From: a virus
Lineage: Duplodnaviria > Caudoviricetes
Virus record (IMG/VR): IMGVR_UViG_3300028914_000062
Span: 1 to 64,000 of that record
Length of the DNA stretch: 64,000 nt
Direction: 5' to 3' (one strand)
Shown here one piece after another: positions 25,528 through 64,000 of the stretch (positions within the stretch are counted from its first letter, which is position 1; each line of letters opens with the position of its first letter). Under the pieces are notes generated by a model. It did not search any database, had not been told where the DNA came from, and saw only the letters and a list, made by a program, of their open reading frames with translations. The position numbers and the translations under genes were made by a program.

Positions 25528-26013
25528 TTATTTTTCAGTAGAGCCAAACCCGCCGTTACGCTTCTCTGTGACTTTATCATTGCAAACTGTATTAAAGGGC
25601 AAAATGATACCCTGTATAAAGGCTTGTCCCTTATTAATATGAATGGTCCGGCCATGAGTGCCAGCATTGCAAAGCACGGCGAAGATATGACCCTCATTAT
25701 CAGAGTAATAATAGTCTGAGTCAACAATACCGACGGTGTTCATAAGTTGCAGTCCAAATTTTGCCCCAAGTCCGCTTTTTGGGACACACATTAAAAACTG
25801 AGTCTTATCTAAATAAATCCGTATTCCGGTCGGAACTTTTAAATCTCTACCGGGATCGATATCAAAATCATAAGGAGCAAAGAAGTCATATCCCGCACTG
25901 CCAGTCGTAGCACGGCAAGGAAGTTTAATATCATTATAAATATTTTCTCCGTACACCTGTGGAAAATCCTTTTTAAATTGTTCATAACTAATCTTATCAA
26001 ACCAACAACTCAC
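25528..26013 (-). CDS. dut: Trimeric dUTPase
   Basis: SAGYDF, PKSG, GIVDSDY, QGI, RNGGFGST motifs. Confidence 0.93.
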   Translation of the reverse strand: MSCWFDKISYEQFKKDFPQVYGENIYNDIKLPCRATTGSAGYDFFAPYDFDIDPGRDLKVPTGIRIYLDKTQFLMCVPKSGLGAKFGLQLMNTVGIVDSDYYYSDNEGHIFAVLCNAGTHGRTIHINKGQAFIQGIILPFNTVCNDKVTEKRNGGFGSTEK

Positions 26014-26456
26014 GATTTACCCATCTCCATTCTTCCAAATATTTGAGCGCCCCAGCGCGTAGCTTGACCTTCAAACCATATTGCATCATAAGGAGGCATT
26101 TCATAACTGAGCTTACGATTGGTATCTATAAGCCACTGTCTATACCAGCAACGAATTAAACTCGGTAAGCCAATAACAAACGGGAACAAAGGTCCCCATA
26201 AAATATTCTAAAGTGAATGTCCGCTTTCGTGAGCTCGAACAGAGTCTTGCCCCTGACCGATCACAAAGAACATTCCTAAATTGATGCCGCCAATACGAGC
26301 CTTGGTTGTTGTGTATATACAATAGCCAAATTTCTTAGGCTTGGAGCCACGAGCCATCATAATTAAAGTCACAACCGCTCCGATCAGCGTCATAATAATA
26401 CCCCAAGTCCAAGATAAGGTGTAATATAAAACCGGATTAATTTTGTGGTTTTTCAT
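26010..26456 (-). CDS. Membrane HExGH metallopeptidase-like protein (in-frame TAG at 26208)
   Basis: HESGHSL-TAG-NILWGPLFPFVIGLPS...WFEGQA; open to TGA at 26010. Confidence 0.7.
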
Positions 26457-26745
26457 CAGTTAATTTTCCCTCCGCCTTTAATCGCTCTCGAATTACTTTA
26501 ACTCTTTCTTCCCAGATTGCCTACCAAGAAATATCAGGATCCAGCAACTCAGGATGCTCGTCAAAATTGATCGAACCTTCTTCCTGAGCCATACGAATTT
26601 CATACATATTCAGAGAGGGAAAATCTGGATCGGCATATTTCATATAATCGAGCCCTTTTTCTGCCGCTTGTGTTAATTCTTCCCATTGAGAAAAACTAAA
26701 TAACTCTCTATCTAATTTCTTTTCTAAATTTGCCATAGAGGTCAC
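26437..26745 (-). CDS. Hypothetical protein (in-frame TAG at 26521)
   Basis: Frame continues past the TAG to TAA at 26437. Confidence 0.5.
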
Positions 26746-28060: not shown

Positions 28061-28810
28061 TTAGTTCTCCTCTCTGCCGGTAGTCGGCAACTCGTCAGCT
28101 TTGGCTGACACGATACCTCTATAGTTATGGTTCAGCTCACACACGGCGCAATAGGGTTCATCTTTAAACCACTCGAGATACGGTACAAAACCACTTCTCT
28201 CTTTATGATGAAAGATATCACACTGCTAGTCGTGACCAATTACAATAACTTTACAATTATCCTTGACTCGCGTTAAAACCTTCTTAAGTTCGTCCAAATA
28301 AAAGTTCTGAGCCTCATCAATAATGATAATAGCATTGTCAAAGTTTGTACCGCGCAAGAAAGTATGTGGTTTACAGTCAACAAAAACCTCATCACTTTTG
28401 GCGTTGTCACTCAGCTAATTTATAACTTTGTTGGGAAAGTACCCGCACTCAATAAGTGCTTCGGACAGAGGTTCATAAAACGGCTCTGTCTTATCCTCCA
28501 GAGTACCAGGTAATAGTCCAACATTTTCATAGCCTATAGGGGCAAAAGTATATATAAGTTTGTGATATAACTGATATTCAATCATAGCACAGGCTGTAGC
28601 TATGGCGATAGTGGTTTTACCACTACCGCTTTTAGCATTACAGAAAATGATCTTATTTTTGGGGTCATAAATGGCGTCACGAAACGCCTTTTGCTCATCC
28701 GCCAGACGGAAGCTTAATCTCCGGAAGAAGCCGCTTTTATCAAGTGTCTGGGGAGGATTAACCTTTTCCGCTGGCTTAGCTGCAGAAGAAGATTTTGCCA
28801 CAAAGGTCAC
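28061..28810 (-). CDS. phoH: PhoH-family ATPase (in-frame TAG at 28415 and 28226)
   Basis: AKSGSGKT, GLLPG, FLRGTNF, IIDEAQN, LTR, IGHD-TAG-QCD in one frame ending at TAA. Confidence 0.9.
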
Positions 28811-29558: not shown

Positions 29559-31880
29559 TTATAATAAAAATTGTAGCCAAGTTTGCTTAATTCTTACTCG
29601 ACTAATGGTTACAGCTTTGCGAAAGACCGTATTTGCAGCGACAACAACACAATATTTTCTTGCACGAGTAATCGCCGTATATAATAATTCCTTCGAAAGC
29701 AGAGCATAAGCGGTCTGATCCAGCCCAAAGATAACATAAGGAGATGAGTCACCCTGCTTCTTATGAACTGTAATCGCATAACCCAATGATAAGGTAGGCC
29801 ACGCCTTGGCAGGAAGAATTAGATCACCTTGTTCTGTCAAGTTAATAATCATTTCCATCGGGTTAATCTTTTTTATATACCCCACGTTGCCATTGAAAAT
29901 AGGGGTTTCCTCGCCGCGCATATTCTTGGCTGATTTATAATCGTTCTGCATAACAATAATACGATCATTCGGCTTTAGAGTGATCACAGTACCTGTACCG
30001 GGAATTGCTTTACCACTCTCATCTCGTTCCGGAGCAGAAGTAACCTGTACTTGCTCGACGTATTCGGTGGGATTAATCAGTGCCTGTAAATGATTGTTCA
30101 GAGTTCTGCAACACACATTACCCCTATCTTTAAGCGGAACAAGTATCTGAATATCATCAGCGTTGACCCCTTGTTCACGCAAAGCATTAAACTCGTTAAT
30201 GATATTTTGATAAACAAGAGCAGAGTCATGGACCACATCTAATTTAAAGTCTTTTCGTTCTCCACGGATTTCTTCGCCACAAAAACCACTATCAAATAAC
30301 TGTTCACCATTAGAGACTTTCAAAGACTCAGTAATGATACCGGAAGCGGCTGCTTGACGATGAATTTTCGTAAGGGTAGTTACAGGTATTTTCCCACTCT
30401 TGATTATATCGGCGAAGACATTACCCAAGCCTATTGGCTCAAGCTGGTGCATATCACCAAGCATAATAACACGAGTACCTGTTTTTACTGCTTTCAAAAG
30501 AGATAGGAAAATATCGGCGCCAATAAGGGTGCACTCATCAATAATAATTACGTCTAAGCTTAATTGATGATCTTCATCGTACATAAACTCATTTTTACCT
30601 TTGGCCCCTAATAATTTGTGGATTGTTTGACCAGGTCTATGAGTAATTTCGGTTAATTTACTTGAAGCGCGACCACTTAAAGCACAAGTGGCGATGCTCA
30701 AACCTTTTGATTCAAAGATTTTATAAACAGCACTTGTTGAAAAACTTTTTCCAACACCTGCACGACCTGTTAAGACACTAACGGGATTTTCGATCATTGT
30801 GTAAATGGCTTGTTTTTGTTCTTCCGTATAATCAAAGCCAAGATCATCTTCAGCCTCTTTAATAAACCTATCAGCATCCGTACGAGTAAATTGTACATAA
30901 GGGTGACCGTTCATAAGCCTGTGCAGGTTCTCCGCAACACCTTTTTCGATTTCATAATTGTCTACAAGACTTACTCTACGAGTGTCCGGTTCATAATAAA
31001 GTGGCTCATCGGGAGTTTCCTGGGTTCTAATCAAACTCTTAATAGTTGATACAACCAGTTCGTCGCTCATAGGGGCGCACATACTCTGAACCGCACTAAG
31101 GAGATCATCAATAACAACCCAAGAGTCGCCATTGGTCTCTCCTCGCTGGTCAAGATAATAACACGCATAAGCCCTTGCTCTACGCGGATCGTTGCCTTTA
31201 ATACCAGCTTGATTGGCCCAGCGATCTGCTTTATTCCAGCCGTAGCCACGAACTTTTTCTATAAGAATATAAGGATTTTTCTCTATGGCTTCGACTGCGG
31301 CTTCAGCCGAACCGAAAGCGTTAACAATTTTTTTAATGGCCTTATCGCTCAAATGATACTCTGAAAACGCGATAACTGCGTCAGCATACTCTTCGTTATC
31401 TACAAATTTATCAATGGCTCTGCGAGCACTCTTTTCGCCAATGCCTTTTATTTTCATCAAGGCTTTCATATCCTTGGCACGGAGCAATTTAATAGGATCT
31501 TCGCATCCATCGCATATTTTCTGCGCCTGTCCCTCGCCAATAGCGAAGCTCAGGAACTTTAATTGATCCTCTTTATTCTCAAAATTATAGTCCCCTCGAA
31601 GGCTTTTCGCATTATATTGAGGTCCATATTTGTCATCATTAACTAAAATGCCACGAAAAACATATTCCTCTTTGGGCACCATAACAGGAAGTGTACCTTT
31701 AACGGTAATATTCTCGCTCCACGCTAGCTCGTCAGGAAGCTCGCCTTCCATAAGTTCAGTAATTCGAACTATGGCGATGCCCCATTGAGTCTCTCTCCAA
31801 GAGGTGGGGTAAATATATCGCACTAAACGAACTTTGGCCTTAAGTGCGGACCCCAGTAATTCTTCTACGCTTTTTGCCAT
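29559..31880 (-). CDS. recD2: RecD2-like SF1B helicase
   Basis: HhH region, GRAGVGKS, IIDE, GDMHQLEPIG, IHRQ, YAITVHKKQG, YTAITRA. Confidence 0.92.
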   Translation of the reverse strand: MAKSVEELLGSALKAKVRLVRYIYPTSWRETQWGIAIVRITELMEGELPDELAWSENITVKGTLPVMVPKEEYVFRGILVNDDKYGPQYNAKSLRGDYNFENKEDQLKFLSFAIGEGQAQKICDGCEDPIKLLRAKDMKALMKIKGIGEKSARRAIDKFVDNEEYADAVIAFSEYHLSDKAIKKIVNAFGSAEAAVEAIEKNPYILIEKVRGYGWNKADRWANQAGIKGNDPRRARAYACYYLDQRGETNGDSWVVIDDLLSAVQSMCAPMSDELVVSTIKSLIRTQETPDEPLYYEPDTRRVSLVDNYEIEKGVAENLHRLMNGHPYVQFTRTDADRFIKEAEDDLGFDYTEEQKQAIYTMIENPVSVLTGRAGVGKSFSTSAVYKIFESKGLSIATCALSGRASSKLTEITHRPGQTIHKLLGAKGKNEFMYDEDHQLSLDVIIIDECTLIGADIFLSLLKAVKTGTRVIMLGDMHQLEPIGLGNVFADIIKSGKIPVTTLTKIHRQAAASGIITESLKVSNGEQLFDSGFCGEEIRGERKDFKLDVVHDSALVYQNIINEFNALREQGVNADDIQILVPLKDRGNVCCRTLNNHLQALINPTEYVEQVQVTSAPERDESGKAIPGTGTVITLKPNDRIIVMQNDYKSAKNMRGEETPIFNGNVGYIKKINPMEMIINLTEQGDLILPAKAWPTLSLGYAITVHKKQGDSSPYVIFGLDQTAYALLSKELLYTAITRARKYCVVVAANTVFRKAVTISRVRIKQTWLQFLL

Positions 31881-31883
31881 ATA

Positions 31884-34800
31884 TTACACCCTTTCCCTTT
31901 CATTCTTAAATGTGGCAATTCCATTCGGTCCCAGACTTTCAATAAGTCTAACCGTATGACCACCCTTTGTCCAGTCTTGCTTGGGAATAAAGAAGCTATC
32001 TCGACGCACGCCGGAAATCATTACTTTATTGCCTCGTACAAACCAGCTCTTTTCGATAACCGTTTTCTTGCCTTTATCATTCAACTTACTGATATTCTTG
32101 TTATAATGAATAAAGGCGCCCTTGTAAAACTTAACATCAACAACACCATGAGGTGTCAAAATGGTAACTATATGTTTATTATTATCCGTATCAATAACCG
32201 TACCGACTATGTTTTCGATTTTATATACGTCAAATTCTTTGCCTTGCTTATTCACACGCTTGCCAACAGGCTGTAAATCCTCCGGCAAACTATTAAAGTT
32301 GACCAAGTTGTAAGCAGAACTTGACATTTTTGCCAATTCGTGATCATGATAATAGTAATGCAAAGAATTCATTTCCCAGGTGCTTACAGTGCCTTCGCAG
32401 TACTTCTCCCAAATATCGTCAATGAAGGTGGCAATTTCGCCCTCGTAATACTTGGTTCGACCCTCATCAGAGTTTAACCATTCCATTAATTGGCTCAATT
32501 TGGCAGTAATTACTTTGTTAAATATAGACTGTTTTATCTGAATTACACCATCGGGCATAACATTATAATCTTTGGTCTTCATATCATCCTGTAGATAATT
32601 CTGGAAGAAAGTAATGCCATCTTCATCAGAAAGTTCCATCATTTTCGTCTCAACTTTTAGCTGATTGGCTTCGCACCATTTTTTGAAAGCGAAAGTTCGA
32701 ATCGCTAACTCATATTCTTGAGGAATGATTTTAAAACTAATGGCTTTTTCCAGGTTGGCAGTTGTTATCTTATCCTTCTTGGTATACTTCTGTTCAGCAA
32801 GAAAACGTAAAAACGTTCTCATTGCAACATGACGAGAAGCATAAAGCTTGTCGAAACAACCCGCTTTAATCAGCGAAATCATTTGCACATTGGTCGGCTG
32901 GATCTTCGTCCAAAAATCTTGAACCGAAGTGTATGGTCTATTTTGTACAATTTTCTGCGCCAATTCAGTATTGACATTGGTAATTGCTAACAAACCATAT
33001 ACAATTGAGTGATTCTCTATATCGGGGAAGAACTCTAAATGAGCGCGATTAATATCCGGTAAATCAACTTGATATCCATAGCCCTTAAGATCTCCAATAG
33101 CCTTGGCTATCTTTCCATAGTTAGTAGTTGCTACCGCTCGCTTACCAGAATTCTCAGACTCAACCTCTTCATCAGAAACCGTCTCTTCCTCTTCGTCTCC
33201 AAAGGCTTCTTGCATATCTACGTCAGTATCGCCGCCTGCGGTAACAGTTAAAACCGCACAGGCCCAATACATCGGATCGTAGAAACAAGCCAGGTTGGCT
33301 TCCTGTAAAGCTATTAAAGAATAAGCGTGAGAATGTATTGAACAGAAAGAATATGCCAATTGAACTTTAATGCAACTCTCCCAAACAAAGTCTGCAAAAG
33401 GTTTAGACACCTTGTTGTCTGCACACTTCTTAAAGTAGAGCTCTTCTAAGCCGGCAACTTCTTTCATTATCTTCTTTGCAAGTATCTTCCTTGCATGATT
33501 TGCTTCAGCCAAAGTAAAGCAAGATATGTGAGGATCCATCAGAACCAACATCAGGGTCTCTTGCTGAGTGCACATATAGTGTGTTTTCTTCAACAGGGGC
33601 CGCAGAATTTCGATTTCCTCATCAGTAACGCCTGCATTTTTGGCATCTTTTTCCCATTCAGAGGGGTCGTTTTTATATCTAAACAGAGTATCAATCGGTT
33701 GCTCCGTATTGGGACTCTGCAGTCTCATTGTATCGTTAACCAGACCAAGTTCAGATATAGAGGTAGGACGGATTTTTTTAATGCACTCACGGCCCACTTT
33801 GGAGTCGCCAAACTGGAAAAGCGAAATGACTTCGCCATTTGCCATTTTCTCCCACATGGTTTTATCTGTCTGGTTGAGAACATCAGGATGCAAGTATTTG
33901 TTATAGGTTGCTCTCAACGAACCTTGCCACTCCATCGCTCCGCCCTCAAGCATCAGTTGAACGCACTTTTGGATTTTGCTCATAGCATCAGTTACGAGCA
34001 AGTCTTCTTTAAGTGCTCCAAGTTTATCACTTGCTTTCATATTGAACATGGTCATAGGCGTTCCATTAGGAGCTCTTAATAGGCTATTGTGCTCCAAGTA
34101 GCCCTCTTCACCAGAGAAGACATATACAGACGAAGCGTGCTGACCTCTACCACACCACAATCCTTCGAGTTGTTGCACAGTCTCAAAGAGTCTAGGATAA
34201 CTTTTAAGAGCAACTTCAAAGTTGGGGACGGCAGGGAGCTCTCGTTCTTCGTCACCGTTTAAGCATTGTTCAAAGGTGTATTGTATCCCTCGAACCGCTG
34301 GAACCAGCGCTGCCAATGCCTGTGCCTCATCATTAGAAATGTTTCCAAGACCTCTGCAACTATTGATTATAGCCGACTTTAAGGTCATTGTCTTAATGGT
34401 AAGTGTCTTAAGAACCTTATTAGCTCCATAATGTTGGCGCATTAATTCAATGATCTCATCGATTTTGACATTATTAAAGTCAGAGTCTATATCGGGAAGC
34501 TCGCCGCCACCTTTGACGTGACCTTGTTCATCCTTCTGAATACGAGAAAGATTTAAGAAGCGCCACTCAACCAATCCATACTGAAGAGGATTAAATTGAG
34601 TAATACCAAGTAGATAGTTTATTAAAAATCCTCCGGAGCTACCTCTACCAGGTCCGACAAAAGAAACGTTCCAAGCGAGGTCGAGAATATCTCTTGTAAG
34701 CAGTTCATAAGAACTCAGTCGTTGTCCAAGAGCATCACTTATTCCCCAAAGTATCTCAAACTCAGTATTTAATCTACTCAAAACCTCGAAAGTCGTACCG

Positions 34801-35840
34801 ATAAGCTTCAACTGAGGACTTGTCTCAATTAAATAATACAAATATCTATCGGCTTCAAACTCCGAATGAGCAAACTTTTCAATAAAGGGATATTGAGCAA
34901 AATACGGCGCCAGAGCATAAGTCGGAGTAAACTCCGGAATTACAATCTGGGGCACTTCCGTATTTGCTTTAATATCATAGTCTTCCACCTGAGCGGTAAT
35001 CTCAAGTGTATTCGTGAGACCAAGAGATGTCTGCTCTCTGGTAACTCCCGATTTCTCCATGAGATCATAAATCTCTTCCTCGGTCATCAAATAAGTGTAA
35101 GCGTAGAAGTCGCCCACTTCTCGATCTGATTCATCACGACTGGAGATAAATGCCTCATGTACTGAACGATCTTCTTTATTCAGATAATGAACGTCAGTAG
35201 TAATAATATATTTAATTCCAAAGTGCTTGGAAAGAGCTATCAAAATTGGATTGACAATTTTTGCTGCGTCTGTATCGGCCGGCTGCAACTCAATATAACA
35301 ATTGTTTGCGCCGAAAGTTCTCTTTAGCCAAGGCAGATACCAGTTAATAAAATCGGAATCTCTGGCAAGAATGGCTCGATCCAGAGCAGAGCCGAGACAG
35401 GCGGAGCTGGCAATTAAATGTCCCTTATTGGGGGCCACGATTTCTTCTAAATCGGAGTAAAAGGTAGGTACTCTCCACTGCCCTTTACTAAAATACGCTC
35501 GGTCCCACGCACGAGAACTGATGTGACGAATTTGGTCGTGACCAATCTTATCCTTTGCAATCATCAAGAAATGCGGAAAGACAGAAGTCACCTTATAGTC
35601 TTCCGGTTTAATCAAGTACGATTCGATACCCAACGCAATTTTGAAATTGGGATTATCCTTGCGGATTTTATCTCTCAGCTCAAGTACATCTACGTGGTTT
35701 GCTATTATTTCATGGTCTGTGATTGCAACGCCGCCAAGACCCATCTCAATCGCCTTATTTATAAGATCTTTAGGTCTGACAATGCAATCTAGTAATTTGA
35801 GGTTTGATGCCTCGGTGTGACAGTGTAATGAAGAATACAT
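31884..35840 (-). CDS. dnaE: DNA polymerase III alpha subunit
   Basis: PHP domain (LHCHT, AITDH), GPGRGS, LPDIDSD, C-terminal OB fold; no in-frame TAG. Confidence 0.95.
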   Translation of the reverse strand: MYSSLHCHTEASNLKLLDCIVRPKDLINKAIEMGLGGVAITDHEIIANHVDVLELRDKIRKDNPNFKIALGIESYLIKPEDYKVTSVFPHFLMIAKDKIGHDQIRHISSRAWDRAYFSKGQWRVPTFYSDLEEIVAPNKGHLIASSACLGSALDRAILARDSDFINWYLPWLKRTFGANNCYIELQPADTDAAKIVNPILIALSKHFGIKYIITTDVHYLNKEDRSVHEAFISSRDESDREVGDFYAYTYLMTEEEIYDLMEKSGVTREQTSLGLTNTLEITAQVEDYDIKANTEVPQIVIPEFTPTYALAPYFAQYPFIEKFAHSEFEADRYLYYLIETSPQLKLIGTTFEVLSRLNTEFEILWGISDALGQRLSSYELLTRDILDLAWNVSFVGPGRGSSGGFLINYLLGITQFNPLQYGLVEWRFLNLSRIQKDEQGHVKGGGELPDIDSDFNNVKIDEIIELMRQHYGANKVLKTLTIKTMTLKSAIINSCRGLGNISNDEAQALAALVPAVRGIQYTFEQCLNGDEERELPAVPNFEVALKSYPRLFETVQQLEGLWCGRGQHASSVYVFSGEEGYLEHNSLLRAPNGTPMTMFNMKASDKLGALKEDLLVTDAMSKIQKCVQLMLEGGAMEWQGSLRATYNKYLHPDVLNQTDKTMWEKMANGEVISLFQFGDSKVGRECIKKIRPTSISELGLVNDTMRLQSPNTEQPIDTLFRYKNDPSEWEKDAKNAGVTDEEIEILRPLLKKTHYMCTQQETLMLVLMDPHISCFTLAEANHARKILAKKIMKEVAGLEELYFKKCADNKVSKPFADFVWESCIKVQLAYSFCSIHSHAYSLIALQEANLACFYDPMYWACAVLTVTAGGDTDVDMQEAFGDEEEETVSDEEVESENSGKRAVATTNYGKIAKAIGDLKGYGYQVDLPDINRAHLEFFPDIENHSIVYGLLAITNVNTELAQKIVQNRPYTSVQDFWTKIQPTNVQMISLIKAGCFDKLYASRHVAMRTFLRFLAEQKYTKKDKITTANLEKAISFKIIPQEYELAIRTFAFKKWCEANQLKVETKMMELSDEDGITFFQNYLQDDMKTKDYNVMPDGVIQIKQSIFNKVITAKLSQLMEWLNSDEGRTKYYEGEIATFIDDIWEKYCEGTVSTWEMNSLHYYYHDHELAKMSSSAYNLVNFNSLPEDLQPVGKRVNKQGKEFDVYKIENIVGTVIDTDNNKHIVTILTPHGVVDVKFYKGAFIHYNKNISKLNDKGKKTVIEKSWFVRGNKVMISGVRRDSFFIPKQDWTKGGHTVRLIESLGPNGIATFKNERERV

Positions 35841-35944: not shown

Positions 35945-36937
35945 TTAAAAATCGAACTTGAATTTCTTCGGAGCATAGCTCGTAGTTGCCTGCGTGCTTA
36001 AGTAATGCTCCATAACCTTTTCATGATTTTCAATTCCTTCCCACTTATTCAAACACTCATAAGTGGAATTTTGCCTTGTCCATAAAGAGTGATATGGACA
36101 AAGTCTTTTACCTTCTTCGGGCTGATTGGGGTTGGTTGCACTAAACGGACACCAATAGCAAAGCGGAGAGGGGCTCGGAGTCCAGTCTTGCTTATCAATA
36201 TTAGCAAGATTTTTCTCAATTTTAGTCATTCCACGCTTTAACCAGCCTTTTGTGCCTGCACTTTGGCGCATATCACAGAATGGAAGGTCGTAATTAAATA
36301 AAATCATTGTTTCATCCGGATCGACCTACTATATATTGTATATAGACAAAGCGTAGACCACAAGCTGTAGTGGTGTCTTGGTATCCTTTTCATCGAATGG
36401 ACGGTCTCTCGTCTTAATATCCTCGATAAGATATTTATTTTCGTCTTTATACTTCCAAAGTCTATCAATGAAGCCTTTGAAGACGGTATTGGCGAAAGTA
36501 AACTCGAAATATTTTTCGACTGCGACCAGTTCAAGTTCAGGATGCTCCTTAGCAAAGTTCTCCAATCTATAAATGCCTTCGTTAAGGTAATTTGCACATT
36601 TGACTGCGTAGCAAGATCCGCGAGCGTCTCGCTCAAAATAGGGGGTGGGATATTTCTGCTTGAGTATGTCCAAACCGTAAATACCACCACTCTGATCAAA
36701 GGGGCTGGTCTTGGGAATATTAATATGCTGGAACTGATCTTTTAAGTTCTCATAATCAATCGGCTCTCCATTAATAATACACTGACCAATCTGCTCTTCG
36801 ATATGGTGAACGAGAGTACCCAGATCTATTGCAATCGACGGCTGATCGATAAAATGTTTATCCTCGTATTTAAGTTTGTAAGCCCAGGGACAGTTGACGT
36901 ACTGATTAAGACGAGAATAAGAAAACTTAGGTTTCAT
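35945..36937 (-). CDS. PD-(D/E)XK nuclease, RecB/Cas4-like (tandem in-frame TAG-TAG at 36326-36331)
   Basis: SYSRL..CP, GFIDR, EDIKT, QLVVYA, then C-terminal CYWCPF after two TAGs. Confidence 0.85.
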
Positions 36938-40010: not shown

Positions 40011-40011
40011 T

Positions 40012-52900: not shown

Positions 52901-54562
52901 ATATACAAGGGGCCAAGAGTCACTTGTTGAGCTTGTTTTAGAAATAGTAAGATAAGCATGATTGTAATCCGAAGATACCCACGTTACCGTCAAGCCAGAA
53001 GCGTAAGGCGCCAGTGGAACAACTTGTGTAGAACCACCATACTCTACCTTGTTTTCATCGTCCAGTGTTACTACATATAAATATTTAGTAGCATCTGGAG
53101 GGGATATAGAAATATACGTACCAGCAACACTTGAGGCAGTTTGTGTGAAATTCCAATCCGCAGATTGTAAATCACTTTTAGAGGTACCAGCATAAGGCAT
53201 CACACCACTTGATAAAGTAGAATAATAATATCCTACCATCGTACCAGGCTAACAGCCTAATAAAATAGTTACGGTTGTATCTGTGGTAACGCTCTGTTGT
53301 ATTGTCATAACGGTCGGTAACAATTTAACTGTGCGCTAATTTATATTATTATCTGCTCCACTTGTAACTTCCAAATTAGCATTTGCTGTAACTAGCTAAA
53401 TAAGATGAACTTCTCCTTCAGGAAGATCAATTACCGCCTCCCCATTACTTACTGTGGTAGATTTCCATCCACTAACATTCATTCCCACATATGGCTATGT
53501 ACTTAAGTAATTATAATAGACAGTGGACAGAGATCCGCTCCCAGAATTTCTGGAAACCGTAAGATAAGCGTGAAGATAATCCGAAGAAATCCAAGTAACT
53601 GTTAAACCCGAAGCATATTGCGCAGGAATAATCTGAGCAAACCCACCCGTTTCTACATTATTTGACCTATCAAGAGTAACAACATATAAATATTTAGTAA
53701 CAGTTGGCAGGTTATTGGTGATGTTAATTATGCTACCATCTGGCACCGCCCCCGAAGATTGAGTCTGTGTGGATGTCCACCCAAGTAAATCAGCAGATGC
53801 TGTGCCAATATAGGGCATGTTTGTTATTGATTCTGTATCAAACCATTGATATTTCACATTTACTGTTGAACCACAGTCAAATACTATTGTAATAGAAGTT
53901 GGCGTAGTAGCGCTTTGTGTTACAGTCAAATCTTTAGCTTTTAATTTAACGGTCGGAGGATTATCTGCGCCCTTTTGTACTTGCATACTTGCATTTACAG
54001 TTACCACTTGAACTGTATGAACCAAACCTGGAGGTAGCCCTATAATAGCCTATCCATCATTATCCACTGACGCATAAACCCACCCATCTGAAGTACTAAT
54101 CGTATCTCCTTCAAGAGGCGTTGTAACCGAATACTTATAATATACGAAAGTCACAACACCTCCACCAACTGGATTAACCGTTAAATACGCATAATTATAA
54201 TCCGAAGAGTTCCAAATGACTCGCAGTCCAGAAGCATAGGGTGAGGGGATCTACAGAACTTTTTGAGCATACTATTCTATTTTTAAAGTGTCTTCAACCT
54301 AAACACCTTTACTTATAATTGCAGCTCGTAAATTACTTTTCGCCAAAATTAATCGCGCAATATTATCTTCTGTTAAACTATTTTGGTCTAAAACTATTTC
54401 TGTAGTCGATGTATAACTTGAAGGAATCTCCAAAACTTTTTGAGCATATCCGTCTAATGTTATATCTCCGACTGAGACACCTTTAAATTCAATAGCAGTT
54501 TTTAAACTAGATTTCGCTGATATTATTCTTGTAATATTCTCTTCAATTGACACACATATCAC
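49958..54562 (-). CDS. Very large repetitive beta-rich tail/receptor-binding protein (~1530 aa, many in-frame TAG)
   Basis: Seven supplied ORF fragments share one frame; repeated YxYxxxMPYIG...LYVVTLD...GG modules; duplicated AKxxLxxAIxxKGV N-terminal motif. Confidence 0.75.
51450..53921. repeat. Tandem duplication, 2 x 1236 bp (412 codons)
   Basis: 51450-52685 matches 52686-53921; identical ORF translations offset by 1236. Confidence 0.95.
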
Positions 54563-54568: not shown

Positions 54569-55033
54569 TTATATAGCGGATAATTGAGTATCAATTACAC
54601 CCAATATATTGTCAACATATTGTTTTACAGCCTTGGCAGTAGGATATTGAGCATCGGTAGGCTAAGACCCAATACTGGTTACTTTATTGACAAGCAGCTC
54701 TACTCCGGCATAGGATATTGAGCTATTAACAGCAATCGTACCGTCCGCATCCTCTTCTCCTCCAATTTTAAACACAAGAAAGCTCATAGTGATTTGATTT
54801 TTATATTTAAACAAAACACCCTAGTCGCCCTCTTTGAAGGAATACTTGGACCCGTTCCTAACATTAGGAATAATGGAGCCGTTCTCTCCCTCATCGGACA
54901 GCATGCGAATATTATAGGTTCCGTCGTTATTTTTGGTAACAATCTCACATAAAGCTGTTTGATCCCATTTTTTAAGAGTCTACTAATTTAGTGTTTTAAT
55001 TGCACTAACCAGTTCAAGATATCCTGTTTCCAT
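54569..55033 (-). CDS. Putative baseplate/tail protein (several in-frame TAG)
   Basis: METGYLEL... open to TAA at 54569 when TAG is sense; lies in the tail module. Confidence 0.6.
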
Positions 55034-56310
55034 CACATGCTGCCCCCTTTTCTAGCAAAATTAAAATTATTAACATTACTTACTTCAAGTGACATTACAC
55101 CATCATAATTCAAATTGAAGTTCAATCCTTGGATCAAAAACTTCTCTTGGTTCAAATCAAAAAACTCATCGGTAATTGTCACCAAATTATTAACTGACAA
55201 CAGAGGATTAAACGGCACATTACCCAAATTAACCGTCGACTTCAGAATTAATATCTTTCTCAGTTCATACTGAGCTCTTTCGTCAACCAAATATTGTGCC
55301 GTTAAATTTCCATCTGATATTGGTGGTGCAGTTCTATAACCAATTCTCTAATAACAAAGCGGAGACTCCGCATTATCATTCACCGCAATCGCTTTATATG
55401 CAGCGCTTTCACTTGAACCACCAAGTACAACTACTCGGTTAGCCACATCAGTAAACTTAAAATCAAGACTTAGATTGTCGAAATCTCCGTGATCTGATCT
55501 TAAATTATAAAGCACCGGTTTCGAAGAGTCACCAGAAACTTCGTCAAGAGGAATAACAACCAAATGCCCCTCAACATCATAAAAACATTCAGCGCCCAAT
55601 TGCATAACCAGGTCATTAACGATATCTCCTATTGTATCGCCGGCTTCGTGACTAATCTTCGCACCGGTCTTTCTTCCCTTAAAAGAAGAATGATAAATCA
55701 TTGGAAGCGGGTCCAAAGGTCTACCATTTCCCTTGGGGAAAAGTAAACAATCCCGAAGCGCCGCTTCAATATCGGAGTTTTCTGGAATGGTATAACTTGT
55801 CTCAAGTGTACCAAGCTTTCCTTCGAGGATCGCGAATTTATCGGAACAATCCAACTGCGTATCAAACTTTGAAGCCGACTCTGTTGGATTGGCCGAGTTT
55901 ATAATATAGGTTCCTTTGGGGAACCAAATGGTGGACCCCGATAATAAGTCGAGGCCCACTTTTAAACCTACTTTGGTTTCCGCCCAAATCGAATTGATAT
56001 TGGGGGTATAACGCCCATCGACGTTATTTAAACCGAAAGAAAGAGATCGACGTTGGCCCGTTTGATAATTTTCAGAATAACTACCATTATCATAAATCAA
56101 TTCTTCTGGAATAATTTCATCCTCGGTCTCATCTTCATTTAACCAAACATAACGATATCGAGGGGTCAAAACAGAGTTTTGAATCGTCCTACGGATCATA
56201 TCAAAATCTGTTTCGGCATTAACATAAGTGTCACCAACCATCATCTATGCTACAAGCTTATCACCACTGGATAACTTGTAATAAGATGATCTTGAATTTA
56301 TAGTACCCAA
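55033..56310 (-). CDS. Baseplate hub / minor tail protein (in-frame TAG at 56245 and 55348)
   Basis: TTG start with AGGAGG RBS; QRRSLSF, DKFAIL, FYDVEGHL, NRVVV motifs. Confidence 0.7.
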
Positions 56311-56332: not shown

Positions 56333-59300
56333 TTAATAATGCGTGCGATGAGTAGAAAAACGAGTGCCCATATGATTTGATGTAAAACGAGTGAAGTTCC
56401 AACATCCCGTCTAGCTAGGTACTGAGGTATTATATGCGGCACCTACACTTACGGCTACCGGAGTAGCAAGAGCACCGATACCAAATGCTAAACTTCCCGT
56501 AGGAGAGTTGGTGGCCCCTCCATTGGCACCTGGCATAGTTGTGTTGAAAATGGGTATTTGTCCAATCTAATTATTGCCAAAATTATAAAAACTAGGCATA
56601 GTAATATATCCCACAGCTGGCACTGGCACCCCCGTATTAATAGACGTGGCCTCAATTGTAATATTACTTGTGTAATTCAGATTGGCATCTTTTGAATAAT
56701 AATAATAGCCATTAAGTACGGTAAAATCACAACACAATTTGTCTACATTACCAAAAGGATTTTCAATACCACGATATTTACTAGGGAAAAAGAAATTTCG
56801 AGCCTAATATGGATTAACAGAGCACAAACTTCCTGTTGCCCCCAAAAGTATATCCGTACATCCTGCCACATAATATACTGGTGTAATTGAAGTGTAATCT
56901 GTAATGGTGGGACTATCAGTCAAATAAGCATCGAGATAATTATTATTTGGCACCATAGCCGCTATGGTAGAAACAAACCTATTCTATGGATTTGCAGTCG
57001 TATTAGCTGAAGAATTATTAAACGCAATATATGTGCCAGGCATTAACATTAGTTTATAATACTTACCACCGCCCGGTGACGCATTACTGCTGTTGGTAAT
57101 ATTTGGTTCGGTAATCACAATTTTTGGGTTCGAAGCTGTAGGCGTATCAATAGCCAAGGTTCTAACTCCAATCAAATAACCAGACAACGCCTCCTATATT
57201 CGAGTAATCCCATATTCGCCCATCATTAACAAATATAACATATAATGATCTGAATATTTATAGCCCACAAGCCCAGAGTGAGCATGTTCTATATCCATTA
57301 ATTTGTTAAAAGACTAATATTGAACAGGACGTTTTCCACTAATTGAGCGTAAATTACCATTATCATCACTTAATTCATACGCAGAAATAAATCCCATTGC
57401 AAAAGTTAGCTCTGAGCTATAATTATAATGCATATTAGAAACATTACAAATAGCATCTGCTATTGAGTCGTGACCGCCATAATGGTATGGGTAAATACAT
57501 ATTAAACTTATTTGTGCTGGCTATATTTTAGTAGCGGCTGTATTGTAAAATTGGAAATCTTGACTTAAATCTGAGGGGTTAAAATCTGCATAATAAAACA
57601 AAGGAATCTCAACAAACACATCTCCCTAATCGCCAACTACGCTAAAATATTTCTCCCCTTCATAAGCTACACGATTGTAGTATCCATTATTCCATGAGCC
57701 GCAACTTCTTTTAATCTCTGACCACGGATAGTATTTATCGCATTGGGTTAAAGAATGATGCTAAGCAGAAGAAATTCCGCCATAACTCCAAAGCGTTGCC
57801 CTTCTATTCGTATATACGTTTCCAGAAGGGGCGGCCAATAATGTACCTGTAATTGTCTTAAGCGATTTATTAATCTCTTGTATCTATATAGTCAAAGTTG
57901 GTTCATTAGAATAAAGAGATCTCGTAGTTCGCGACGAAGCAAAACGATACCCAAGAGAGTAAGTGTTTCCATCTGATAATCCACCACCAACACTATAAAA
58001 TACTATATCACCAATCTAAAATGGAATATCTTCGATGGATACAAAATCTGAAACAGTAAATGTTATTGGATTTCCCAATCCAATACTAGTAAGTGGATTA
58101 AAAGTGGTCGATGATCCATACTATTCAATAGATACAGTATTTAACTAAAATAGATTTCCTAGTCTCCAAGCGCCCGAGGTTCCACTTTGTGCATTAGCCC
58201 AAGCCTCTTGACTTTGAATTGCTAAGCCCGAAAATCCCCATTTAGTATTTAAAAATTGTAAATTTCTACTAAAGGTTAATCCCTATTCTTGTTCATATAA
58301 TTGTTGATGTTTATTAGGCCCCCAAAGCCATTGACATTCAATAATCTATGTATAATAATTAGAAGGCTCAATCGAACTATTATTCGATTTACCCCTAACT
58401 CTTAGCATATACTATTTACCTTCTGTAAACTATCCACTAAAACTACCTGTACCATCCTATTCGGGTAAGATAACCGGTGCTATTGCCGATTTAAGAGTCT
58501 TGGTAGGCGTCTCATAGCCAGTAATCTCTACATTATTAACGGCTGTTAGTGTCCACTCGTAGTAATCAGTTAAAGCATCGTTTTCAATAGAAAAGATAAA
58601 GTGATAAGAGTCTTCATAGGCTGGAGTTTCTAATTCGGTATTCCAGATGGTATCACCAATAAAAGCTGCGCCGTGAATAATCGGAGTGGGCAATTTAATG
58701 GTCTACATAACAGCCTGTCCCTGAGCGGTATCAATTGTATCATTCATATCCTGGCCCGTAATTAAAACATTATCACAACTTTCGATTTCTTGCCAACTAA
58801 AATTAACAAAAGAAGGCTGACATGGAACATTATCGTCTACTCTATCAGACATAGAAGTAAGCTATACAATATACTTATTACCCTTACGATCTTTCAACAG
58901 CTTCGGATTTTTTGAAGATACGAACCTGCGCCACGCTTTCAACATAGCAATAGATTTATTGCTTGTGGTTAATGGAGTGAAACGAGGCTCTTCATTATAT
59001 TCACCAGTGCAACGAACTAGTTCACTCCCAAGATAGCACGAAACAGTACCACTCATATAATTGCGCTTGCCCTGTGCCATCTTGTTATATTGAGATAAGT
59101 TTGTAACCTAATCTCGACCAACGTTCTAAGTATTTTCACCAGTCGAAACATTAAATCTAAATATCCACACACCAGATTTGTTTACCGTATATTCTTTCTT
59201 TACAGAAGGGATATCGGTAGTTGTTTCAGAAGGCAAAAGCTCAGAAAGCGACCAATTAATCATAGGAGTTTGAATAAGGGAAGTGTCTGAGGTCGTAGCA

Positions 59301-59782
59301 CTAGGATTAACTGCAGTTGTCGCAAAAACGGTGTCTTCCATATCTGTTGGATATGCAATATATTTATAAGTATGATTCGACGCTATGTTATAGTCTATAA
59401 TTTGAGGTGACTATACGTTAATGGCAACAGGATCTCTGTGTGTAACCACACCTGTCGCATTGTTTGCGGCAACTTCTTCACGATAAAACGAATAATGACC
59501 AGAAGTCTTAGAGACCCCAGAGAAAATACCAATGTTTGGAGTGGTGCGATAATTACCCGTTACAAAATTTAGTAAAGAAGACTTTTTGCTTTGTTCAATT
59601 AATTGCGAATATTGCCATTTATTTGGAAATGGTAAATGCGCACTATCATATAAATTGGAAGCAAATACATTTGTGCCAGAAGGCCATCCCTAAGCGTACA
59701 TATAATCAACATCCTATTTGGTATCATGCATATCTAAATTGTTATCGTGCCCAGACACTTTCCATGTTATATTTCTTGCCAA
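56333..59782 (-). CDS. Large tail protein (~1150 aa, about 25 in-frame TAG)
   Basis: No TAA/TGA found in frame by hand reading; VFVEIPLFYY, SAYE, YRGIENPFGN motifs of tail-fibre-like proteins. Confidence 0.75.
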
Positions 59783-59818
59783 GAAAAACACTCCTTTCTT
59801 TTAAAATTTTAATATATA

Positions 59819-62800
59819 TTATTGTATCGAACCCGTAATTTGACGCACTTCAATTTGTATTCTAGGTGTACCGGAATAACTAAATGTAGTAATTACAGGA
59901 TTGGAACTAATATCAGGATTAGAGCTTGATAAAGTAGATAAACTATCAATATCATTAATACGAATATCAAACCCATAACGAACCATTCCCCCACCAGCAG
60001 TAAACGCAATTGGAGGATGGCGTTTAACTACCGTAAAAGGTTTTTGACCTTCTGCATAGTCGGTCCAACGCTAATTACATACGACATTAATCTAGTTCTA
60101 AATAGAAGGATCGGTAAAATCCACGTCATTATTCTAACTGCTTATGAACCGGAAACGAATAAATTTAACCGCAACACCGTCAATAGTAGAGGGAATATCA
60201 AACGTATCTGCAGATCGCACTGAACGCGAAGAGGGGCTCCAGGTATTGTCTGATTTATTTACACCAAGATACGTATAATTCGCTCCATAAGCATAACATT
60301 GGCATTTATAATTAGAATAATATTGACTAATCATATTTACAGAAATATAATCACTCACAACATCTTGACTATAGGAAGCTGCGGATATAAGGGCTCCTGT
60401 GGTATATGATAGTGCCTTGCCATTACCCTCGTTATCAGTATTAGCAAACCTATTTAAACTATTATCTTCCCAAATATGAGGAATTGGATTGCCCCCGTTT
60501 AATTTCTTCACTCTTCCATATTCTTGTCTTTGAATTGGATAGGTAGTTGGAATCAAATCCACTTCATTATCTTCCCAAATCGAATCACCATTATTTTGAA
60601 TATCAGTAGGATCTAAAACCAAACAACACGGGTTAATAGGTCTCATACTATTATATGGAGTATCCATTGGTTGATAATAAACATTACCAATTTTGATTTT
60701 ATTAGCGTTAATATATTCATCGGTCGCTTTTGGCCACCCATCGCCCTCGGCGCTCAACTATACATTAAATTGACGATAATAATGGACATTCGGATTCTAA
60801 ATATTATAATCTCCGCCACTATCTCTCCAACAAGTGTACAGAACCGGAGCACCGCTTAAATCAGAAACGATTGCGTCATCTATGGTGCCAACATAACCAA
60901 TATTACATTTTAGAGTGTTACGAGCATTTTCTAATGTACCACTACCAAGAGCATCATAATTGAGAAATCGATCGGTTGAACTGGTAAAATCGTCAGGAGT
61001 AAATATATCTATTGCCAAATATGGGTTTGACGGGTCTGAGGTTTCTACCATAAACCTTAAAATTCGACCGCGATAATTCGCGTCTAGTCTAGTAACCATT
61101 CTAAAGGTTGTTGCACCACTATCATCAGTATATAATTGATTAGTTACAGGTGTTATATTTTCATTATATCCAAAATAATATTTATATTTAACTCCGTGTT
61201 CATTGGCATCGCCGTTAACATTTGCAAACATTGATCCGTTTGAGCCAGAAACGCGCATTTTATCACCGTTATAACCTAAAGACCCATCCTAAGGTGTATA
61301 AGCTATTGCAACAGTACCCGTCTCAGTATCATAAGGAAGAATATATCCCATATCCTAAAGTGACAAAATAACGCCGTGAACATTACAATCATATTTGGCA
61401 GTAAAATCAATTTCCAAATTTTCTGGAGTAAACATTGCATCAATCTATGCGCAACTCATAAGAGAATTTCCCAACTGATCTTCTACAACTAAAATCGCAT
61501 AATACCGTTGATTTTCCATGAGCCCATAAAATACAACATTCATTAAGCCAGAAAACTTCTTACCAGTGTCCTGAATAACGTCTCCGTTCTAATCGACCAG
61601 CATCCAGCGGTACGACATCCAAGAAGCTGCCTACGGCTGCGAATATGCGCCAACTAGAGAGATAAAACGAGTATGAATAATACCTGTATATAAAACAGGA
61701 ACAGTAAACTGTCCATCTTTGGTAGAAACAGTAATTTCTTGAATGTTGTCTTCACTAACTGTTGTAAGTCCATCCTGTATATATTTTCGTCCATTTTGAT
61801 CACCAATGGTCACCGTCCGTCCGCCAAACATTTGCCCCTGTTTAACGAAGAACGCTGCGGCAGGATCAAACGACTCTATTTTCATCCAAGCGATAGCAAA
61901 CGAAACGTTCGTATCCTGACTTGCTAAACTAATTGTTTTGCCACTAATAGTAACAATTTTATTAGCATAGGATAGGCCATATCTAATAGAAGTAGAGGTC
62001 AAATTTGCACTAACTGTTCCCTATGCTGTAAAAGGAGTTAATGCAACACTATCATAAGCTTTGATATATTTTTGAATACCGGCCCCATTACCCGAATAAT
62101 CACCAGGATAGTAAGCATAGAAAGTAGAATTAGGCGCCATAGAATCAAAATTAACACCATCTAAAACCATCGATATCTTCGAACGATTAACCGTTGCGCC
62201 TGTTTTTTTAAAATACCAAATTTCTCCACCTCTAGTATTTCCGTGTTTAATATATACAGAAATACCAGACGTACTTTCAAGATTCACAACGGGAGTGGGA
62301 TCAACTTTATAAGTAACAAGATCTTGAGTTATTTCGGTTACCTCGTAAATACCCCATCCGGCACCATAAGGATTATTAAATCGCCCAACAATATAGGTTC
62401 CTACTCCAATTGTATATCCATCAATAACAATACCACCAGAGGAGGGGCAGGTAGCGCCATCCCAAACATCTGCTGTATATGGCATTGTCTATAACTAATT
62501 CCCAGAAGAATATAAATAATCCACAGAAGGAATAGGAGTATTAGAATTGTCATCAAGAGCAGAAAGTGAGGCTGTATAAGTACCCAGTCCCTCATCGCCT
62601 ATACCCAATGCAACAGTGTTATTATTAACCTGTGTGCCATCGATTAATTGGCTCGAATAATTCGGAAGTTCAGCCAGATAATTAATACCGCCCTCAACAC
62701 TAGTGGCCACTAAATCGGTAGAAGCTGTAGATTCAATATTCAAATCAAGCGAAGGGGCATCATATGCGTAAAACGCTGTCTCGTCACTCGTATTAAAATA

Positions 62801-64000
62801 TGTTTGAATATTATAAGTATAAGGATCAACCGAAGGTAACGCTGCCGCTAAAGTCTCGTGAGTAATATACCACATATCTTTATCAATAGTATTAATTGTG
62901 ATATATGACTGTGTCTATCCATTTGCGAGTAAAACACCATCGACATTTGTAAAGAAGAGGCGTTGTCCAACTTCGAGATTTACATTTTGGCCAATATAAG
63001 TTTGCGAAGGAGTATTATAACTTAAAGGACTATAACAAAGATCATAAGTAACTGTAGAATAACCTTTATAGGTTTTGCAACCTCCCAACTCTCCTTGCGC
63101 TACATAATAATACTTATCCGACTCAAGATCTGCAATTTTAGTCCATGAAGAAGAGTTTCGTTGATAAATACCAGTAGAAGCTAAAATAATATCTCCTGTT
63201 TCAACACTATATCCATCTATCGTAGTATCACCACTACTGGGAGCTCCTGTAGTGGTTTTTCTATATTGAACAGTCTCTTGTAATTTACTAGGATACAAAA
63301 TAATAGGCTATTCTTCTGTAAAATACAAAGATGAGCTTGCCGAAAAATTTTGCATCAATGGAGTATATAATGTCCCACCGTAAGAAGCTTGAGACATATA
63401 ATTGTGACCAGCTGTTGCGGCAGTAGATCCACCAAGAGCTGCACTACTTGCGTAAATAATTCTCCCAAGATAAGAAGCCCAATCCTTAAAATTACCAGAG
63501 CGGCCCCAAGTAGTTGAGTCTGCTACCCATACACCATTATATTTAGCGCTAGAGCCCTGACCCATAAGCAATACTAAATCGCCCTTTTCAAAAGTGACAC
63601 TTGTATAGGTGGTTGTTCCATTATGAACCCATGTTTCGGTGGTAGTTAATCCACTAGGGGCACCGCCAGTAAATAAGGAACCGAGAAAAGCATATTTAAC
63701 AATATCGGTGGTCGGGATATCATCTTCGCTATTACTATGTTTATACACACAGCAATAGGTGGCTCGATTAGAATTTAAAATTTTTGCATCCATCCAATCG
63801 GATACGGGATAAATATGACCAAGGGTTGCATCATAACTTTTGATATTACCACGGGCACCCACAGCCTCATATCCGCTACCCGAAGAATAGGCTAACTAAA
63901 CCCATTTTTGAACCAGTACTTCATCAGTCGGCTCAATCTATAATCTCGAGGGTGTTGTGCCGCAAACTGTACCACTAGAAATAACCAGATCATATTCTGA
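59819..64000 (-). CDS. Very large virion structural protein, 5' end outside the window (many in-frame TAG)
   Basis: Seven supplied ORF fragments in the same frame, separated by TAG; ends at TAA 59819; GDLVLLMGQ...NGVW tail-fibre-like motif. Confidence 0.75.

Follow-up and report, generated by a model that had tools for sequence, protein, structure and literature searches.

Evidence for UAG read as glutamine, with uneven use along the genome, in a gut phage distantly related to SPbeta

Gene content, genome closure and likely host

The 64,000 nucleotides analyzed here (the window) constitute the beginning of a phage contig of 134,923 bases. The genes described below lie on the minus strand, and many are interrupted by in-frame TAG. 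The distal part of the window carries the gene for the anaerobic ribonucleotide reductase NrdD with a fused thioredoxin domain (43637..46054; PF13597; 805 aa, five TAGs at codons 71, 81, 201, 517 and 537); an endolysin/amidase (47356..48846; 496 aa, 5 TAG), in which the PHROG endolysin match over residues 28-224 runs through three TAGs; an ORF of unknown function (48868..49788; 306 aa, 4 TAG); a structural protein with a weak N-terminal match to GxDLY/SGNH-esterases (49958..54562; 1534 aa, 25 TAG); a tail protein (55033..56310; 425 aa, 2 TAG; phrog_1887, E = 5.5e-31); a virion or tail-associated protein (56333..59791; 1152 aa, 25 TAG), for which the best of 357 homologues is 55% identical over residues 21-896; and the 3' part of a second structural protein (59819..64000; PHROG "virion structural protein"; 18 TAG in the window), the whole gene of which reaches genome position 64507 and encodes 1562 aa with 19 TAG. 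A 155-aa ORF with 4 TAG occupies 54569-55036. The preceding part of the window encodes a DnaB-like helicase (38454..40052; 532 aa, 2 TAG), which is a lightly recoded replication gene; a PD-(D/E)XK nuclease (35945..36937; 330 aa, 2 TAG); a RecD/Dda-like helicase of 773 aa and a YorL-type DNA polymerase III alpha of 1318 aa (29559..35840; PHROG matches), which together have 0 TAG in 2091 codons; a PhoH-like ATPase (28061..28810; 249 aa, 2 TAG); and a 148-aa ORF with 1 TAG and no family match (26010..26456). A tRNA cluster at 17575..19211 comprises Pro-UGG, Met-CAU, Asn-GUU and Thr-UGU together with an aberrant 92-nt element, and none of these reads UAG.

The ends of the contig are bridged at 100% identity by an independent JGI contig (L022), which was reached via an identical protein that it shares with the phage. 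The genome thus closes into a circle of ~134.9 kb, and this closure overrides the CheckV completeness estimate of 81%. Samples that contain the phage include ENA ERZ27257204 and JGI 3300031998. An exact-pattern scan of IMG/VR to extend the contig ends gave no match, and neither the 1152-aa protein nor the DNA polymerase, used as queries, retrieved close relatives from IMG/VR.

Judged by protein identities of 36-57%, the phage is only distantly related to Bacillus phage SPbeta and is not a member of Spbetavirus. Like SPbeta, it has a genome of about 130 kb, a very long tape measure protein and a YonO-type single-subunit RNA polymerase (PF05183), and over its full length its YorL-type DNA polymerase III alpha shares 36% identity with SPbeta YorL. 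The genes for the head and tail have orthologues with Pfam YonB/YonD/YonG/YonJ domains in standard-code gut relatives. Unlike the phage described here, SPbeta uses the standard code; the probable host here belongs to the same phylum as that of SPbeta but differs in class (Clostridia) and habitat.

NrdD, the single gene from which we assign the host, points to a standard-code gut bacterium from the Clostridia order Oscillospirales as the probable host. The phage protein is 75-80% identical to NrdD of Oscillospirales metagenome-assembled genomes, in which the nrdD genes are called full-length and without in-frame stops on contigs of up to 1.9 Mb, in agreement with the statement in the earlier note on this DNA that hosts of such phages use code 11. 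A true GlnRS (TIGR00440 above cut-off) is encoded in each of the five Oscillospirales genomes whose NrdD is nearest to that of the phage.

TAG as a sense codon and its amino acid

Several observations bear on the proposal of the earlier note that reading frames are broken by TAG alone and that the true gene ends are TAA or TGA. First, the 117 tiled ORFs of the genome contain 264 in-frame TAGs and 0 TAA or TGA, and they terminate with TAA (80) or TGA (37), as had been proposed. Even under code 11, TAG terminates just 4 of 78 ORFs in the early regions, and three of these four are explained, two being pieces of one gene and one overlapping a tRNA. Second, frame 0 of the late block has 226 TAG and 0 TAA/TGA in 18,171 codons, as compared with 427 and 916 TAA and 277 and 824 TGA in the two other frames; this TAG-only interruption far exceeds chance. 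Third, the coding density, determined by greedy tiling of ORFs, increases genome-wide from 0.785 under code 11 to 0.923 with TAG as sense, as compared with 0.818 and 0.867 in controls with TGA and TAA as sense, respectively; in the 43.6-64 kb region, it increases from 0.695 to 0.981. Fourth, the frame previously reported at 56333-59782 was recovered at 56333-59800 as a stop-to-stop stretch of 1155 codons that holds 25 TAG but 0 TAA/TGA, and the adjoining frames are alike (49958-54568 with 25 TAG; 59819-64000 with 18 TAG inside the window). Fifth, profile matches continue through TAGs, e.g., NrdD matches the whole of PF13597 (1-562). All four peptides quoted earlier as spanning TAG (asterisk) are present on the minus strand. 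VEQI*DSVE (45800-45826) and KQLI*EGLGG (45437-45466) are in NrdD and L*YEICED (48418-48441) is in the endolysin/amidase, but HESGHSL*NILWGP (26190-26231) lies outside the amidase, in the 148-aa ORF of unknown family. The base following TAG is distributed as after CAA/CAG, indicating that there is no special suppression context.

The use of TAG is uneven. The earlier note had described recoding over 26010-64000; TAG is recoded there, but densely only in late genes, while most early and replication genes are TAG-free, and the recoding continues past position 64000 as far as ~108 kb in the genome. Between 43.6 and 101 kb, TAG makes up a share of 0.29 of Gln codons; the share is 0.03 between 26 and 43.6 kb, and it ranges from 0.01 to 0.07 in the early blocks (1-26 kb and 108-135 kb). 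Structural and lysis genes are thus rich in TAG, replication genes have few and early genes almost none; the core replication genes, too, are nearly TAG-free. Altogether, 241 of the 264 TAGs are found in structural, tail, lysis and some nucleotide-metabolism genes in 43.6-101 kb and in the gene for the YonO-like late RNA polymerase, which has 9 TAG, the first at codon 9. A MerR-like regulator also has 9 TAG. The tape measure protein of 4245 aa has 84 TAG in one ORF, and these 84 consecutive suppression events demand near-complete suppression.

Four independent tests, made against standard-code homologues or recoded relatives, favor glutamine as the amino acid at TAG, as the earlier note had proposed, and alignment to homologues revealed strong glutamine enrichment at the TAG columns of NrdD, the 1152-aa frame, TerL and the structural genes. 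In NrdD, three of the five TAG columns have glutamine in 120/120, 108/120 and 120/120 bacterial homologues against a glutamine background of 2.9%. In the 1152-aa frame, TAG columns 222 and 310 have glutamine in 122/144 and 99/144 homologues, and glutamine leads glutamate by about 160 nats in likelihood. Across 14 TAG columns of TerL, glutamine is enriched 4.4-fold. For the structural genes, compared with four relatives that translate under table 11, glutamine leads glutamate by 32 nats (163 cells in 50 columns). Finally, comparison with L006 and L021, two near relatives that are recoded as well, showed 11 cases of TAG conservation and 21 changes at TAG positions, of which 15 are swaps between TAG and CAA/CAG. 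These findings support the reading of UAG as glutamine (NCBI table 15) in a phage whose genes end with UAA or UGA only.

Many TAG columns are variable, and the homologues there carry glutamate or lysine more often than glutamine. The prevalence of these residues at variable columns would fit a TAG that specifies another amino acid, such as glutamate, lysine, tyrosine or pyrrolysine. We consider this very improbable: glutamine is the best residue in every likelihood test (by 32 and 160 nats), the conserved TAG columns are 83-100% glutamine, and the codon swaps with the near relatives mostly involve CAA/CAG, with glutamate codons in just 2 of the 21 changes. Moreover, glutamate, lysine and arginine are the usual substitution partners of glutamine and are also seen at true CAA/CAG columns.

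The same data speak to the idea that the TAGs are true stops in a decaying, pseudogenised phage, or artefacts of assembly or sequencing. It is in line with this idea that annotation under code 11 breaks the late genes into fragments and that databases already hold 67-71-aa pieces of the gene for the 1152-aa protein. However, decay would also add TAA, TGA and frameshifts, none of which is seen in about 40,000 codons; the same TAGs occur in independent contigs from other samples; and TAG positions are under glutamine-like constraint. We regard the likelihood of true stops or artefacts as negligible. Reading UAG as glutamine, table 15 is needed to reveal the 4245-aa tape measure protein, the tail proteins, the endolysin and the late RNA polymerase.

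A candidate split tRNA as decoder of UAG

No canonical suppressor tRNA was detected in the closed genome, and no genes for a release factor (RF-1 domain) or for GlnRS/GluRS (class Ic synthetases) were found in the phage. The sole candidate for a UAG-decoding tRNA is an intron-split, non-canonical gene on the minus strand at 21564..21850, rebuilt from the sequence as a putative amber-suppressor tRNA(CUA). Exon 1 (21850-21814) and exon 2 (21604-21564), which ends with GCCA, are separated by a group I-like intron of 209 nt (21813-21605) inserted after anticodon base 35; the predicted ligated tRNA would have 78 nt and the loop CUCUAAC. The intron matches Rfam Intron_gpI with 26.7 bits (E = 2.3e-4), which is under the gathering score, and its fold has z = -3.3. 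The cloverleaf of the candidate has a predicted energy of -24.8 kcal/mol compared with a minimum free energy of -25.2. A scan for the split-tRNA pattern, which was designed after the locus had been seen, gave one match in the genome versus 0.025 per simulated genome.

The candidate is atypical in that its 8-nt T loop lacks the usual TPsiC and that A1 and C72 form a mismatch. ARAGORN made no call on it, even when it was spliced in silico, and, compared with the tRNAs found by a tRNA scan in one likely host, it resembles none overall, tRNA-Gln included. Four pattern scans of public contigs, i.e., for the T arm, for the split anticodon arm in viral and in metagenome contigs and for the intron-less anticodon arm, found no homologues of the split tRNA, so covariation lends it no support; their single match was an unrelated high-GC chance match. 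A promoter and terminator scan around the candidate returned nothing.

Other tRNA-like elements were rejected as suppressors. The 92-nt element (18291-18382) has no CUA and an aberrant anticodon arm, a weak element at 21186-21257 has a UUUU-type loop and a poor acceptor stem, and the 108 long-intron calls by ARAGORN at a low threshold have mismatched stems and are noise.

We suggest that, most likely, the host GlnRS attaches glutamine to a phage tRNA with a CUA anticodon, which then outcompetes release factor 1, and we infer that the split tRNA undergoes splicing and charging and serves as this decoder. Because the early and core replication genes are nearly TAG-free, they are translatable in a naive host cell. 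By contrast, the TAG-rich late genes would give full-length products only after UAG decoding has been established, and the uneven use of TAG may in this way act as a translational timer for the late genes. Altogether, we consider it highly probable that this closed genome is that of a phage, distantly related to SPbeta and with a probable standard-code Oscillospirales host, which reads UAG as glutamine, likely by means of a phage tRNA, and uses it unevenly.

UAG may be read as glutamine by a decoder other than the split tRNA, i.e., a host-encoded or co-infecting suppressor, or the near-cognate host tRNA-Gln(CUG), which would pair by G-U wobble at the first codon position once the phage has disabled release factor 1. 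In favor of such a decoder, the closed genome lacks a canonical suppressor tRNA, and the candidate is non-canonical and without homologue support. In published surveys, no more than about 40% of the TAG-recoded phages had suppressor tRNAs, and host suppressors were raised as a possibility (10.1101/2021.08.26.457843; PMC7886860). However, the split-tRNA geometry, at one occurrence against 0.025 expected from simulation, coincides with an independent group I intron match and a structured insert. Near-cognate reading is inefficient, the 84 TAGs of the tape measure ORF require almost complete suppression, and no RF1-targeting gene was identified in the phage. We therefore view a decoder other than the split tRNA as improbable.

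A bolder version of the split-tRNA proposal is that the code switch is a layered gate encoded wholly by the phage, in which the sole UAG decoder is the intron-split tRNA from the TAG-free early region. The CUA anticodon would exist only once the group I intron has been spliced out, and the YonO-like late RNA polymerase and the MerR-like regulator would themselves need UAG decoding. Splicing and charging by the host GlnRS would then time late transcription as well as late translation. We advance this layered gate tentatively and think it unlikely to hold in full; if true, it would explain the apparent lack of suppressor tRNAs in many recoded phages.

Comparison with known recoded phages

TAG-to-glutamine recoding and its concentration in late genes have been published (bioRxiv 10.1101/2021.08.26.457843; PMC9523058; PMC10607447; PMC7886860), and the phage is a further example of this documented phenomenon, which is not new in itself. 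Borges et al. described code 15 gut phages of the Lak, crAss-like, Jade, Sapphire, Agate, Garnet and Topaz clades (bioRxiv 10.1101/2021.08.26.457843). The phage shares with them TAG as glutamine, concentrated in structural and lysis genes and variable in replication genes; likewise, they have standard-code close relatives, and a suppressor tRNA is often undetectable. Their hosts use the standard code, as the host of the present phage probably does. The phage resembles the Agate clade (127-154 kb) only in genome size (about 135 kb) and in its probable Firmicutes host; two TAG-recoded Agate phages carry an RF2 gene (10.1101/2021.08.26.457843), whereas the phage described here does not. Its affinities are with SPbeta, as seen in the YorL-type polymerase and the YonO-like RNA polymerase, and the text of that study makes no mention of SPbeta. 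What the phage adds is the closed genome of an SPbeta-like lineage that probably infects Clostridia. As its nearest full-length relatives keep to the standard code, it lends support to a repeated origin of recoding over short evolutionary distances. With no canonical suppressor tRNA in a closed genome, it is also a clean case in which to ask how UAG is decoded in such phages.

The crAss-like phages (Peters et al. 2022, PMC9523058) likewise use TAG as glutamine, in gut bacterial hosts with the standard code, as is probable here, but belong to an unrelated, podovirus-like order that infects Bacteroidota. Their code 15 was proven by peptides (PMC9523058), while here it is read from sequence alone.

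phAss-1 (proposed Phassvirus; Babkin et al. 2023, PMC10607447) was re-annotated with table 15. Like the present phage, it is a gut phage of siphovirus type, has a genome of about 135 kb and carries TAG in the genes for TerL, the tape measure protein, the portal and the tail. Its group also includes recoded genomes without detectable tRNA-Sup (PMC10607447). In a tblastn search of GenBank phages with TerL (E-value limit 1e-5), the only matches were to Bacillus and Microcystis phages at <=26% identity; neither phAss-1 nor SPbeta TerL was among them. phAss-1 also differs in having 36 tRNAs, among them three canonical tRNA-Sup(CTA), compared with 4-5 tRNAs and no canonical suppressor here, and its tape measure protein has 3149 aa compared with 4245 aa (PMC10607447).

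TAG as a sense codon in the late genes

Nearly all genes in the window, which covers the first 64000 bases of one 134,923-base virus record, lie on the minus strand. Beyond ~43.6 kb, code 11 gives short ORFs whereas reading TAG as sense gives a row of long minus-strand frames, i.e., NrdD (43637-46054, 805 aa, 5 in-frame TAG), an endolysin/amidase (47356-48846, 496 aa, 5 TAG), a structural protein (49958-54562, 1534 aa, 25 TAG), a virion/tail-associated protein (56333-59791, 1152 aa, 25 TAG), which recovers the long frame described in the earlier note, and a further structural protein (59819-64000+; 1562 aa and 19 TAG in all). The four TAG-containing peptides quoted in that note were all found in the window; however, the HESGHSL motif lies outside the amidase, within a 148-aa ORF (26010-26456) without a family match.

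Several observations concern TAG as a sense codon. First, frame 0 of the late block (43.6-101 kb) contains 226 TAG, 0 TAA and 0 TGA in 18,171 codons, whereas TAA and TGA each occur in the hundreds in the other two frames; this TAG-only interruption is beyond chance. Second, by simple greedy tiling, coding density increases from 0.785 under code 11 to 0.923 with TAG as sense, and gene number decreases from 203 to 138; in controls in which TGA or TAA was freed instead of TAG, densities are 0.818 and 0.867, respectively. At 43.6-64 kb, the density is 0.695 under code 11 versus 0.981 with TAG as sense. Third, profiles are matched in full across TAGs, e.g., NrdD matches PF13597 positions 1-562. Fourth, the 117 tiled ORF terminators are TAA (80) or TGA (37), and TAG is practically never a terminator in the early TAG-poor regions.

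Glutamine as the predicted residue

That TAG specifies glutamine, as first proposed from the sequence alone, is supported by homologue columns, a likelihood fit and codon swaps with recoded relatives. NrdD is 75 to 80% identical to NrdD of Clostridia MAGs, and three of its TAG columns have Gln in 120/120, 108/120 and 120/120 homologues against a Gln background of 2.9% in this comparison; the remaining 2/5 columns are variable (E/K/Q). The 1152-aa frame has 357 homologues, with Gln in 122/144 at TAG column 222 and 99/144 at column 310, and here Gln is ahead of Glu by ~160 nats. In the likelihood test, which used four relatives with a TerL translatable under table 11 and a substitution table from the same alignments, Gln fits best over 163 cells in 50 TAG columns, with Glu 32 nats and Lys 62 nats behind. 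Moreover, two recoded near relatives, L006 (NrdD protein 98% identical) and L021 (TerL 87% identical), both translate, according to their records, solely "with TAG=Q". Compared to these, TAG is kept 11 times, and CAA/CAG is the exchanged codon, in either direction, in 15 of 21 changes affecting a TAG position. Many TAG columns are variable positions at which Glu or Lys is commoner than Gln. Because true CAA/CAG columns behave likewise, Glu and Lys are here the usual exchange partners of Gln.

TAG-to-Gln recoding of late genes has been surveyed in gut phages with standard-code hosts (10.1101/2021.08.26.457843; PMC7886860), proven by proteomics in crAss-like phages (PMC9523058) and described in a group of similarly sized siphoviruses (PMC10607447). 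By every sequence-level test applied, the present genome is predicted to be a further TAG-to-Gln recoded phage; its lineage is not named in these surveys and papers (10.1101/2021.08.26.457843; PMC7886860; PMC9523058; PMC10607447).

Lineage, genome closure and TAG distribution

The polymerase is 36% identical to SPbeta YorL over its full length. TerL belongs to a large metagenomic family (40 to 55% identity) on contigs of 120-197 kb, while the top match among GenBank phages is 26% identical. Loci of relatives encode Pfam YonB, YonD, YonG, YonJ and YomX domains. The standard code is used by 4/4 sampled relatives at 45 to 55% TerL identity, and recoding is found only in the 87%-identical fragment. 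Together, the polymerase, TerL family, Yon domains and codes of relatives place the phage, as a recoded branch, in an SPbeta-like lineage associated with Clostridia. The NrdD-thioredoxin fusion (43637-46054, -) is 75 to 80% identical to NrdD in Acutalibacteraceae, Oscillospiraceae and Butyricicoccaceae MAGs; this gene looks recently host-derived, with its 5 TAG gained since, and would provide a host clue.

The record is linear in IMG/VR and 81% complete per CheckV. An independent JGI contig (L022) runs from genome 127 to 1 and then from 134923 to 124166, identical throughout (100%), the two stretches overlapping by 4 bases (junction at L022:1-300, window 1-127 joined to genome 134923). Because it crosses both record ends unbroken, the sequence closes on itself, and the genome is circularly closed at about 134,919 bp. 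In an ENA variant contig (135,188 bp), two additional small ORFs (170 and 130 aa) lie at the junction.

TAG distribution follows the published late-gene recoding pattern (10.1101/2021.08.26.457843). TAG is present in 9/40 early genes at 1-26 kb (13 in-frame TAG, several of which probably precede the actual start codon; 0.07 of Gln codons), 4/13 replication genes at 26-43.6 kb (7; 0.03), 26/31 structural, tail and lysis genes at 43.6-101 kb (226; 0.29), 4/6 genes at 101-108 kb, including a YonO-like RNA polymerase (15; 0.21), and 3/27 early genes at 108-135 kb (3; 0.01). The polymerase, RecD-like helicase and primase of the replication block have 0 TAG. TerL, outside the window, has 14, and the 4245-aa tape measure protein (genome 64571-77308, -; L001:2571-15308) is a single ORF with 84; its tape measure matches fall in residues ~2340-3940, with none in the N-terminal ~2300 residues. 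The plus-strand YonO-like RNA polymerase (PF05183) has 9 TAG, starting at codon 9, and a minus-strand MerR-like protein also has 9; because both carry TAG, UAG decoding is needed by the late transcription machinery itself. The two genes form a divergent pair (genome 99512-104723; L003:5512-10723).

Within the late block, TAG is absent from a YonB-family head gene (genome 87761-88876, -; L002; 48 to 57% identity to relatives) and from the adjacent 189-aa gene. The head gene is shadowed by an antisense 444-aa ORF (genome 87563-88897, +), which has only one Gln codon and leads naive ORF tiling astray. The plus-strand early block (genome 120467-130581; L004) encodes three or four large paralogues of 722-872 aa, all with 0 TAG and named PcfJ-like in near-identical contigs. 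The replication-proximal block also encodes a papain-family cysteine protease (26742-27635, -; PF00112, E = 1e-13).

A candidate split tRNA(CUA)

ARAGORN and Infernal identified only tRNA-Pro, Met, Asn and Thr and two aberrant tRNA-like elements in the genome, none with a CUA anticodon, and the genome encodes neither an RF-1 domain nor a GlnRS/GluRS-type synthetase. Only two features go beyond the routine: a closed genome without a canonical suppressor, and the 84 read-through events needed for one protein.

A sub-threshold group I intron match (26.7 bits, E = 2.3e-4) lies at 21564-21850 (-), where a 78-nt candidate tRNA can be rebuilt from the sequence after insert removal. The 37-nt 5' exon ends in GUUGG-CUCU, the 209-nt insert is preceded by U and ends in G, and the 41-nt 3' exon starts with AAC-CCAAC and ends with GCCA; the joined exons form the anticodon loop CUCUAAC, i.e., anticodon CUA. 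The D (4 bp), anticodon (5 bp) and T (5 bp) stems are perfect, the acceptor stem has 6 bp with an A1/C72 mismatch and G73, and the cloverleaf is ≤0.4 kcal/mol from the MFE. None of 200 shuffles of the insert folds as stably as the insert itself (z = −3.3). A split-geometry scan, designed after the locus was seen, gave 1 match in the genome versus 0.025 per simulated genome. G2-C71, G3-C70, G10, G73 and U35 of the split tRNA serve as GlnRS identity elements in E. coli; most of them recur in tRNA-Gln(UUG) of one likely host, and a true GlnRS is encoded by 5/5 Oscillospirales genomes whose NrdD is closest to that of the phage. By contrast, the 8-nt T loop is non-canonical, ARAGORN rejected the spliced tRNA, no tRNA of the likely host is similar to it overall, and pattern scans of public contigs found no homologues. 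Weighing structural support against this counter-evidence, we regard the split tRNA as most likely the UAG decoder, a candidate rather than a demonstrated one.

In a 92-nt tRNA-like element (18291-18382, -; RF00005, 45.8 bits), which contains no CUA, the acceptor, D and T arms are canonical, and an aberrant 41-nt region takes the place of the anticodon arm and variable loop. A weak tRNA-like match (21186-21257, -; 26.3 bits, under the gathering score), ~300 nt downstream of the split tRNA, has a GGCC-UUUU-GGCC hairpin where the anticodon arm is expected. A predicted c-di-GMP-I riboswitch aptamer (17199-17276, -; RF01051, 50.3 bits versus a gathering score of 35) lies directly upstream of a 267-aa ORF (16369-17172); the phage would thus have a second-messenger sensor adjoining its tRNA cluster.
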